A stretch of DNA of 64,000 bases from Patescibacteria group bacterium (GCA_040387855.1 JAZKCY010000001.1:782922-846921); one strand, 5' to 3'; positions 58,181 through 59,826 are shown, counted from the stretch's first letter. The notes: generated by a model not told the origin, from the sequence alone. A program made the numbers and translations.

Positions 58181-58289
58181 AGTTGTGTTCTTTCACACCG
58201 TCTGATGCTTTAGGAAATCATCGTTCCATTGCGAACCCTTAAGGAGCCCACAATATCGACTCAATAAGCTAACATACTTCCGAAGAAGG

Positions 58290-59826
58290 GATGTCAACGT
58301 TGTATCAATTTGAAATGTTCCACGAGCAGCTTCCGCTACCCGTGCCTTGTTACGACTTACTCCCTGTCATTGAGCTTACCGTAGGCCATCCGTGGATGGA
58401 CTTCGGGTATTCCCAACTCCCTTGAGTTGACGGGCGGTGAGTACAAGACTTGAGAACGTATTCACCGCAGTATAGCTGACCTGCGATTACTAGCAATTCC
58501 GGCTTCATGAAGTCGAGTTGCAGACTTCAATCCGAACTGGCGCTGGGTTTCTTACGATTTGCTCTGAGTCGCCTCTTTGCGTCGCGTTGTCCCAGCGATT
58601 GTATTATGTGTGTAGCCCCAGATATCAGAGGGACATGCTGACCTGGCGTCATCCTCGCCTTCCTCCCCCGCACAAATTAAGAAACTTGTACGAGTACGTT
58701 TTTGTTCGCACCTCGCGCAAAGTTCGTTTCCGAACTTATGCGGGGGCAGTCTCGCCAGACACTTGTAACTGGCAACGAGGGTTGCGTTCGTTACCCCACT
58801 TAAGGGAACAATTCAAACCACGAACTGACGACGGCCATGCATCACCTGCCTAACTGCCTTGCGGCTGTAGCGGTTTCCGGTACATTCAGCTAGGTTTCAA
58901 ACCCGGGTGAGGTTCTTCGTTTACCGTCGAATTAAACCACATAATCCACTGCTTGTGCAAGTCCCCGTCTATTCCTTTGAGTTTTAGCCTTGCGGCCGTA
59001 CTACCCAGGCGGATCACTTAACGCGTTAGCTACGTCCCTCAGAGGGTCGATACTCCGAAGAACTAGTGATCATCGTTTAGGGCGTAGACTACTGGGGTAT
59101 CTAATCCCATTCGCTACCTACGCTTTCGTGTTTCAGCGTCAGGAGTGCGCCAGTGAACTGCCTTCGCATTTGGTATTCCCCATGATATCAACGGATTTCA
59201 CCCCTACTCCATGAGTTCTGTTCACCTCTCGCATCCTCTAGTTGTGCCGTTTCTCTCGCATGCCCCCGGTTAAGCCGAAGAATTTAACGAAAGACTAACA
59301 CAACAACCTACACACCCTTTACGCCCAATAATTCCGGATAACGCTTGGAGCACTCGTATTACCGCTGCTGCTGGCACGAGTTTAGCAACTCCTTATTCTT
59401 AGACTGGTCAATGACTTCCTAGTCTACAAAAGATCTTTACATCCCGAAGGACTTCATCAATCACGCGGCGTCGCTCCATCAGGCTTTCGCCCATTGTGGA
59501 AGATTCTCGACTGCGGCCACCCGTAGGTGTATGGACCGTATCTCAGTTCCATCGGTGGGGGTCACCCTCTCAGGTCCCCTAAACGTCATAGCCTTGGTGA
59601 GCCGTTACCTCACCAACTAGCTGATATTCCGCAGGCCGCTCCTTTAGCGATAAATCTTTACTCCGAAGAGACTATCAAGTATTAGCTAATCTTTCGACTA
59701 GTTATTCCTGACTAAAGGGTGCGTACCTACGTGTTACTACCTCGTCTGCCGGTTGCCTTGCGGCCCCCTTGACTTGCATGCCTTATCCACGCCGCCAGCG
59801 TTCATCCTGAGCTAGGATCAAACTCT
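58290..59826 (-). rRNA. rrs: 16S ribosomal RNA, stand-alone (not linked to 23S/5S in this window); the mature 3' end is uncertain.
   Basis: 5' end is AGAGTTTGATCCTAGCTCAGGATGAACGCTGGCGGCG (reverse complement at 59790-59826). The 515 region reads GTGCCAGCAGCAGCGGTAATAC, one mismatch from the universal sequence. The 1390-1410 region (TTGTACTCACCGCCCGTCA), AAGTCGTAACAAGG and helix 45 with a GGAA loop are all present. No GGATCACCTCCTT follows helix 45. Confidence 0.9.

Follow-up and report, generated by a model that had tools for sequence, protein, structure and literature searches.

Substitution of the anti-Shine-Dalgarno core in a Parcubacteria/Paceibacteria 16S rRNA and probable start selection without Shine-Dalgarno motifs

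Main finding

The window (the whole 64-kb stretch of DNA analysed here) encodes a single 16S rRNA. By alignment, its 3' tail was confirmed to lack the CCUCC core of an anti-Shine-Dalgarno (anti-SD) motif. The account as a whole is very likely correct: a lone Parcubacteria/Paceibacteria 16S rRNA, whose anti-SD core was lost by substitution across the clade, is accompanied by genes without Shine-Dalgarno (SD) motifs, a CUCCUU motif downstream belongs to a trailer hairpin, and starts would be selected on leaderless mRNAs and by coupling. That this lineage lost its anti-SD is already known and has been reported as a clade-typical property.

The 16S rRNA gene and its 3' tail

The 16S gene is a full-length bacterial SSU rRNA gene (1338 bits, Rfam gathering score 50; Table 1). 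When cmscan was applied to the 3' portion of the 16S alone, the sequence after helix 45, AACAUUUCAAAU, aligned to the consensus AUCACCUCCUUu with zero gaps. The tail is homologous to the consensus AUCACCUCCUUU, and the core CCUCC corresponds to UUUCA at 58315-58311 on the minus strand. Because the alignment is gapless, the change in the core is a substitution. It bears out the sequence-only reading in that helix 45 is canonical and the CCUCC core is missing after it, but not in that the core had been deleted. Five residues of the canonical tail are retained, namely A1, C3, A4, U7 and C8. A recognisable helix 45 followed by a tail of ~13 nt without CCUCC(U) is also characteristic of the genomes described by Lim et al. 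(2012) and Amin et al. (2018). Within the 3' major domain of the 16S, an expansion of ~70 nt (~58680-58755, minus strand) is located between ...GAGACUGCCCCCGC and GCGGGGGAGGAAGG. It resembles the insertion type described for CPR rRNAs.

Table 1. Features of the 16S transcription unit and of two protein-coding regions in the window
Feature	Position	Strand	Basis or remark
Promoter-like TTGACT-16-TATACT, upstream of 16S	60122-60095	-	consensus match only
Promoter-like TTGACG-18-TATATT, upstream of 16S	59940-59911	-	consensus match only
Processing stem, 5' leader strand UAUUAUUCUUUAUUUUGUUCCGUUC + GACUC	59885..59914	-	cofold
16S rRNA gene	58308..59833	-	Rfam RF00177, 1338 bits, model positions 1-1533
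Helix 45, intact, GGAA loop, GGCACGGGUAGC-GGAA-GCUGCUCGUGG	58320..58346	-	cmscan alignment
16S 3' tail AACAUUUCAAAUUG	58306..58319	-	gapless alignment to AUCACCUCCUUu
Trailer hairpin 2, GUUGACAU..CUUC-UUCG-GAAG..AUGUUAGC	58268..58298	-	MFE fold and sequences of relatives
GAGUCGA box	58256..58262	-	cofold: pairs with leader UCGACUC
Trailer hairpin 3, 27 nt	58228..58254	-	covariation, alignment A1
Processing stem, trailer 3' strand GAACGGAACAAAAUAAAGAAUGAUA	58156..58180	-	25 contiguous pairs with 59914-59890
Terminator-like hairpin and U-run 3' of 16S trailer	~58121..58149	-	sequence; overlapping site in terminator scan
Giant gene, 1102-aa ORF, hydrophobic N-terminus	54746-58054	-	GTG start 7 nt after TATTAT box
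93-codon ORF, only one in window with clean SD (AAAGGAG, spacer 8)	48723..49004	-	

The 16S gene appears to stand alone, because no 23S match is present anywhere in the window. Neither a 23S or 5S gene nor a spacer tRNA accompanies it, and other rRNA matches are absent across the 64 kb. The sole other RNA gene found is tRNA-Ile(GAT) (48514-48587). The 16S gene appears to form its own transcription unit (58121-60122, minus strand) with the rRNA genes being unlinked. Leader and trailer can pair extensively: The stem duplex has a calculated energy of -35.2 kcal/mol and the whole cofold one of -86.6 kcal/mol. In addition, GACUC in the leader (59889-59885) pairs with GAGUC inside 58262-58256 of the trailer. 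According to these models, leader and trailer are predicted to form a pre-16S processing stem of the ordinary type. Several hairpins fold between helix 45 and this stem. The sequence of hairpin 2 is variable among relatives, with some hairpin always present. A G(U/G)CG(A/G)U box ~35-100 nt past helix 45 is kept in CPR 16S trailers, irrespective of the presence of an anti-SD. In the window, it spans 58255-58260 and pairs with the leader (GAGUC/GACUC). The box likely either forms the base of the pre-16S stalk or acts as a signal for processing.

Distribution of the altered tail among relatives

GTDB species genomes were scanned with a helix-45 pattern requiring GGCA, which yielded 120 loci. In 99 of them, the 27-mer of helix 45 is identical to that in the window, and CCUCC follows it in none of the 99. 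Instead, the tails read AAUAAUUCAAUUUGAAA, AACAUUUCAAGG, AUCAUUUAUUU or AACAUAUCCAAUCGGAA. The labels of these loci comprise Nomura-, Taylor-, Zambryski-, Kaiser-, Adler-, Lloyd-, Staskawicz- and Jorgensenbacteria, Paceibacterota and Minisyncoccia. Minisyncoccus archaeiphilus PMX.108 (L050), which is in culture, has the same helix 45 and no CCUCC, and Candidatus Microsyncoccus archaeolyticus is also among the genomes with the window-type helix 45. A metagenome scan using helix 45 and AACAUUUCAA added 29 further contigs that gave the same picture. None of these 29 is near-identical to the window, the best showing ~87-93% identity over partial 16S sequences.

From the 99 species genomes and the 29 metagenome contigs, 124 contigs extend at least 150 nt downstream of helix 45. 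In the first 14 nt past helix 45, CCTCC, CTCC and CCTC were found in 0/124. Within the 150 nt, CCTCC was encountered twice in the 124 contigs compared to ~6.8 occurrences expected from composition. The tail consensus across the 124 contigs is A-W-Y-A-W-U-U-C-A-A with A1 at 100%, U7 at 99%, U6 at 91% and A4 at 88%. In many relatives (loci L005-L149), a palindrome-like UUCA-nnn-UGAA is located straight after the AWYAWU linker; in the window, it corresponds to 58306-58314 (minus strand). At the level of these alignments, the anti-SD loss was shown to be common to the whole clade with this helix-45 variant.

Other helix-45 variants were found at 21 loci from Magasanikbacteria, true Saccharibacteria and non-CPR bacteria. 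All 21 keep the anti-SD core straight after helix 45, either as AUCACCUCCUUU, as AUUACCUCCUUU or as AUCAUCUCCUUU (L076, UCUCC). Several of the anti-SD-keeping CPR loci carry a GUCGAU box ~35-60 nt beyond the core. Therefore, the position homologous to the anti-SD lies right after helix 45 and not past this box. The 16S of the window is at most 86-87% identical to those of the fetched species genomes, the nearest loci being L117 (Parcubacteria group bacterium), L053 (Candidatus Taylorbacteria), L077 (Paceibacterota) and L075. These best matches and the shared helix-45 27-mer affiliate the 16S with Parcubacteria/Paceibacteria, and the organism represents a distinct lineage within this part of the CPR.

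Shine-Dalgarno use by the genes of the window

A crude rule, by which the longest ORFs of 90 or more codons were taken as genes provided that they did not overlap, gave 51 window genes. At least one start, that of glmS, was called wrongly, and wrong start calls blur the motif statistics. The longest glmS ORF begins with TTG at 14753. GlmS must begin with Met-Cys, and its start is therefore the ATG at 14671 (MCG...), 27 codons downstream on the minus strand. The 29 nt upstream of this ATG do not contain a single G.

An SD match was defined as GGAG, GAGG or AGGA with a spacer of 3-11 before the start. Such matches precede 3/51 window genes, compared to 3/51 at a control offset. Hence, the 64 kb tested display no SD-like enrichment upstream of ORFs, a property shared with the genomes that Lim et al. 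(2012) and later Amin et al. (2018) described. Duplexes with ACCUCCUUA have a mean energy of -1.14 kcal/mol at -20..-1 vs -1.72 kcal/mol at -40..-21. Because the anti-SD-keeping CPR loci (which include L002, L004, L006, L024 and L076) gave only a modest signal with crude ORFs (14/57 vs 7/57), the analysis was extended to E. coli, which provides a cleaner control. There, 50 kb yielded matches for 14/41 vs 0/41 crude ORFs and for 24/42 vs 1/42 annotated starts, and the duplex energies at annotated starts were -6.0 vs -1.1 kcal/mol. When ATG-start ORFs were considered, SD matches were present in 26/270 cases in anti-SD-less loci vs 14/57 in loci that keep the anti-SD (Fisher p=0.0035). The claim made from the sequence alone that the native genes lack SD motifs is corroborated by these counts.

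A variant SD that pairs with the new tail AACAUUUCAAAUUG was rejected: The energies are -1.33 vs -1.56 kcal/mol, i.e. there is no enrichment, and the only k-mers enriched at -20..-1 are -10-like or stop-codon words (ATAAT, ATTAT, TAGTA, TATAC). Similarly, pairing of a 'CAU' in the tail with AUG was discarded, as these three bases are not conserved: 50% of the relatives have C at position 3, and 56% have U at position 5. This means, the window genes carry neither an SD nor a motif complementary to the new tail.

The one ORF with a clean SD (Table 1) lies in a GC-rich island of ~630 bp (48700-49330, minus strand; 53.7% GC vs 38% for the window). The island adjoins the tRNA-Ile(GAT) gene, and its two small ORFs have no Pfam matches. 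Judged from its composition and position, the island is probably horizontally acquired DNA that was inserted beside the tRNA gene. Its ORF probably retains a ribosome-binding site that the host ribosome cannot read. This fits the earlier suggestion that putatively foreign genes carry an SD. By contrast, no AAGGA was detected at the described position 5 nt upstream of the giant gene, whose GTG at 58054 is preceded by GATATTATAGAGAGT. The giant gene has no Pfam match. Elsewhere in the window, a 608-aa protein (37997-39823, minus strand) displays weak, above-threshold matches to T4SS-DNA_transf, TrwB_AAD_bind and TraG-D_C, which are type IV secretion coupling protein families.

Probable start selection without SD

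A TAnnnT box that ends 5-7 nt before the start is present in 17/51 window genes vs 3/51 at the control offset and in 2/41 E. coli ORFs; these -10-like boxes are consensus matches in AT-rich DNA. Their position shows a sharp peak at spacer 6. A box 5-7 nt from the start is placed as one would expect for transcripts whose first base is the A of AUG, and leaderless initiation is characterised by a -10 element ~6-7 nt upstream of the start codon. The 51 genes fall into 18 coupled genes, 18 genes with a -10-like box 4-8 nt upstream and 15 others. Coupled genes start at most 10 nt after the preceding gene or overlap it, often in the form UAAnAUG. That 15 genes belong to neither class is in part due to wrong start calls. 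Reduced mRNA structure around the starts was not observed in the window genes (-4.03 vs -4.19 kcal/mol, p=0.65).

Start recognition most likely proceeds via leaderless mRNAs combined with stop-start coupling, as we infer from these patterns. The first genes of transcription units would be expressed from leaderless or near-leaderless mRNAs specified by the TAnnnT box 5-7 nt before the start, with transcription beginning at or next to the AUG. Within operons, termination-reinitiation coupling would operate at stop and start codons that overlap or are 1-10 nt apart, typically as UAAnAUG. In anti-SD-keeping CPR loci, TAnnnT at spacer 6 precedes ATG in 23% of the cases, which is as frequent as in anti-SD-less loci. 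Since the spacer-6 peak occurs in these loci, too, leaderless starts may predate the anti-SD loss. It can be speculated that leaderless starts are common to CPR in general and older than the loss, and that their heavy use may have relaxed selection on the anti-SD. A description of leaderless or coupled initiation in CPR was not found in the literature searched.

The CUCCUU motif and alternative explanations

The only CTCCTT on the minus strand in 58000-58400 starts at 58246, 74 nt past helix 45. This agrees with the ~75 nt at which the sequence-only reading had located a CUCCUU-type motif. The sequence CUCCUUAAGG (58246-58237) forms the apex of trailer hairpin 3. Alignment A1, which covers the GUCGAU box and the next hairpin in 27 genomes, contains a helix of 11 pairs. 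In this helix, 97.6% of the cells are paired, and 10 of the 11 pairs exhibit changes on both sides. The covariation score amounts to 0.676 vs 0.262 for shuffles, and controls in which the 3' partner was slid by 1-3 columns were at most 48% paired. The apex in the relatives reads CCUCAAUUGAG (many), UUCCAAUUGGA, UCUCGAUCGAG (L104) or CUUCGAUCGAA and varies freely, as illustrated by CUCCUUAAGGG in the window vs UUCCUUAAGGA in L073. L125 has nearly the same flanks as the window and reads CUUCGAUCGAAU at the apex. The comparison shows CUCCUUAAGG to be a structural hairpin apex of the pre-rRNA trailer within the leader-trailer processing structure, and it is presumably removed during 16S maturation. 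The resemblance of CUCCUU to an anti-SD inside this structural element is due to chance.

The motif had also been regarded as a possible alternative 3' end created by an insertion. In this case, ~70 nt would have been inserted, and the mature 16S would end past CUCCUUA (58246-58240), which would act as a displaced anti-SD. CUCCUUA is indeed a 7-mer match to the canonical tail and located within the region enclosed by the processing stem. However, CUCCUU is base-paired in a strongly covarying hairpin whose apex is not conserved: L125, the most similar trailer, and the relatives with CCUCAAUUGAG or UUCCAAUUGGA have other sequences at this place. Furthermore, the anti-SD-bearing CPR relatives carry the core straight after helix 45 and the GTCGAT box downstream, and the window genes show no enrichment of GGAG as a pairing partner. 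A displaced anti-SD is therefore highly improbable, and the alternative 3' end is refuted by the covarying hairpin. As judged from the alignments, the 16S trailer downstream of helix 45 was shown to contain no usable anti-SD. It is next to inconceivable that the tail arose from misassembly or from a decaying rRNA copy. Nothing specific speaks for such an artefact apart from the single window, whereas the 16S fits the model over its full length with a high score and is accompanied by promoter-like sites, a processing stem of 25 bp and a terminator-like hairpin. Moreover, 124 independent assemblies, complete genomes and Minisyncoccus archaeiphilus included, share this type of tail.

A further question is whether the core was replaced and not merely lost. 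AWYAWUUCAA, possibly together with a small UUCA-nnn-UGAA hairpin, could be a conserved element with a function in mature 30S subunits, which is possible, albeit rather doubtful. It might fill the platform or the mRNA exit site or might be needed for processing or assembly in an Era-less lineage. The tail is highly conserved across relatives of ~75-87% 16S identity, and some compensatory variants occur (UUCC/GGAA, CUCA/UGAG, UCC/GGA). Era normally reads GAUCACCUCC (PMC10582724), era and rbfA are distributed class by class in CPR, in a complementary manner between ABY1 and Paceibacteria, and era is missing from most CPR classes (PMC12641178). On the other hand, the mini-hairpin is fully paired in 34% vs 26% in permutations (permutation maximum 32%), and that of the window pairs over 3 bp only. 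A1, A4, U7 and C8 are conserved in the canonical tail as well, i.e. some of the conservation may be inherited. In addition, the tail is not complementary to the regions upstream of genes.

Comparison with known systems

Tsurumaki et al. (2022, RNA 28:1041, PMC9297842) detected CCTCCT in only 48% of Parcubacteria and noted that the anti-SD-less ones overlap with lineages that lack uL1. The window resembles this subgroup in its lineage and in the absence of CCUCCU after helix 45. The passages considered are confined to the motif detection rate and the uL1 overlap and do not extend to SD use, a replacement tail, trailer structure or initiation modes. Among the genes scanned in the window, which represents 64 kb of a larger genome, no rplA r-protein operon was seen. 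The sequence-only reading had called a 16S without anti-SD rare. This holds across bacteria but not for the lineage in question, where 124/124 contigs lack CCUCC and the loss in a subgroup is published (PMC9297842).

Lim et al. (2012, PMC3457768) described 15 complete genomes devoid of both the motif and SD-like sequences, and Amin et al. (2018, PMC6107228) extended the set to 128 organisms without finding a variant SD that matches the variant tail. These genomes belong to insect primary symbionts, hemotropic Mycoplasma and some Flavobacteria. Common features are the decay of the CCUCC core by C to U/A substitutions, genes without SD and the lack of a matching variant SD. In contrast, the lineage discussed here belongs to another phylum, and the loss covers a large and ancient class that is widespread in the environment instead of scattered tips. 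Furthermore, the replacement tail of Parcubacteria/Paceibacteria is itself conserved. Mammalian mitochondrial SSU rRNA also lacks an anti-SD (PMC10582724).

Little or no SD use and A/U-rich sequences upstream of starts are shared with Bacteroidetes. Bacteroidetes ribosomes, as reportedly found by Jha et al. in 2021, keep CCUCC but sequester the anti-SD. In the 16S tail of the window, CCUCC is gone, so a sequestered anti-SD does not apply. With the leaderless-rich Actinobacteria and Deinococcus, the window shares a -10-like box directly upstream of the start codon and probable SD-independent initiation. In Actinobacteria and Deinococcus, a canonical anti-SD is still present, and SD motifs serve the leadered genes. 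The window lineage differs from them in that the anti-SD is absent and in that leaderless mRNAs are predicted from sequence alone.

Implications

The 'no anti-SD, no SD' rule has been known since 2012, and Tsurumaki et al. (2022) published the loss itself. The literature searched has less to say on the conserved tail that replaces the core, on the architecture of the trailer and on the combination of leaderless starts with coupling. Since a cultured representative, Minisyncoccus archaeiphilus, exists, the tail, the trailer and the initiation points are amenable to experiments. Anti-SD-less Parcubacteria bear on the choice of start codons in minimal cells. In addition, gene callers that assume an RBS model are affected when run on CPR genomes, as is the heterologous expression of CPR genes. 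It is conceivable, though we consider it unlikely, that the anti-SD was replaced across the whole class Paceibacteria and that AWYAWUUCAA, perhaps folded as a small hairpin, belongs to the mature 30S and has a role of its own in SD-independent starts or in Era-free 30S maturation. The SD-independent modes would be 70S/leaderless or reinitiation-based start selection. If the tail was indeed replaced, Paceibacteria would offer a natural model for bacterial ribosomes that are made to initiate without SD.
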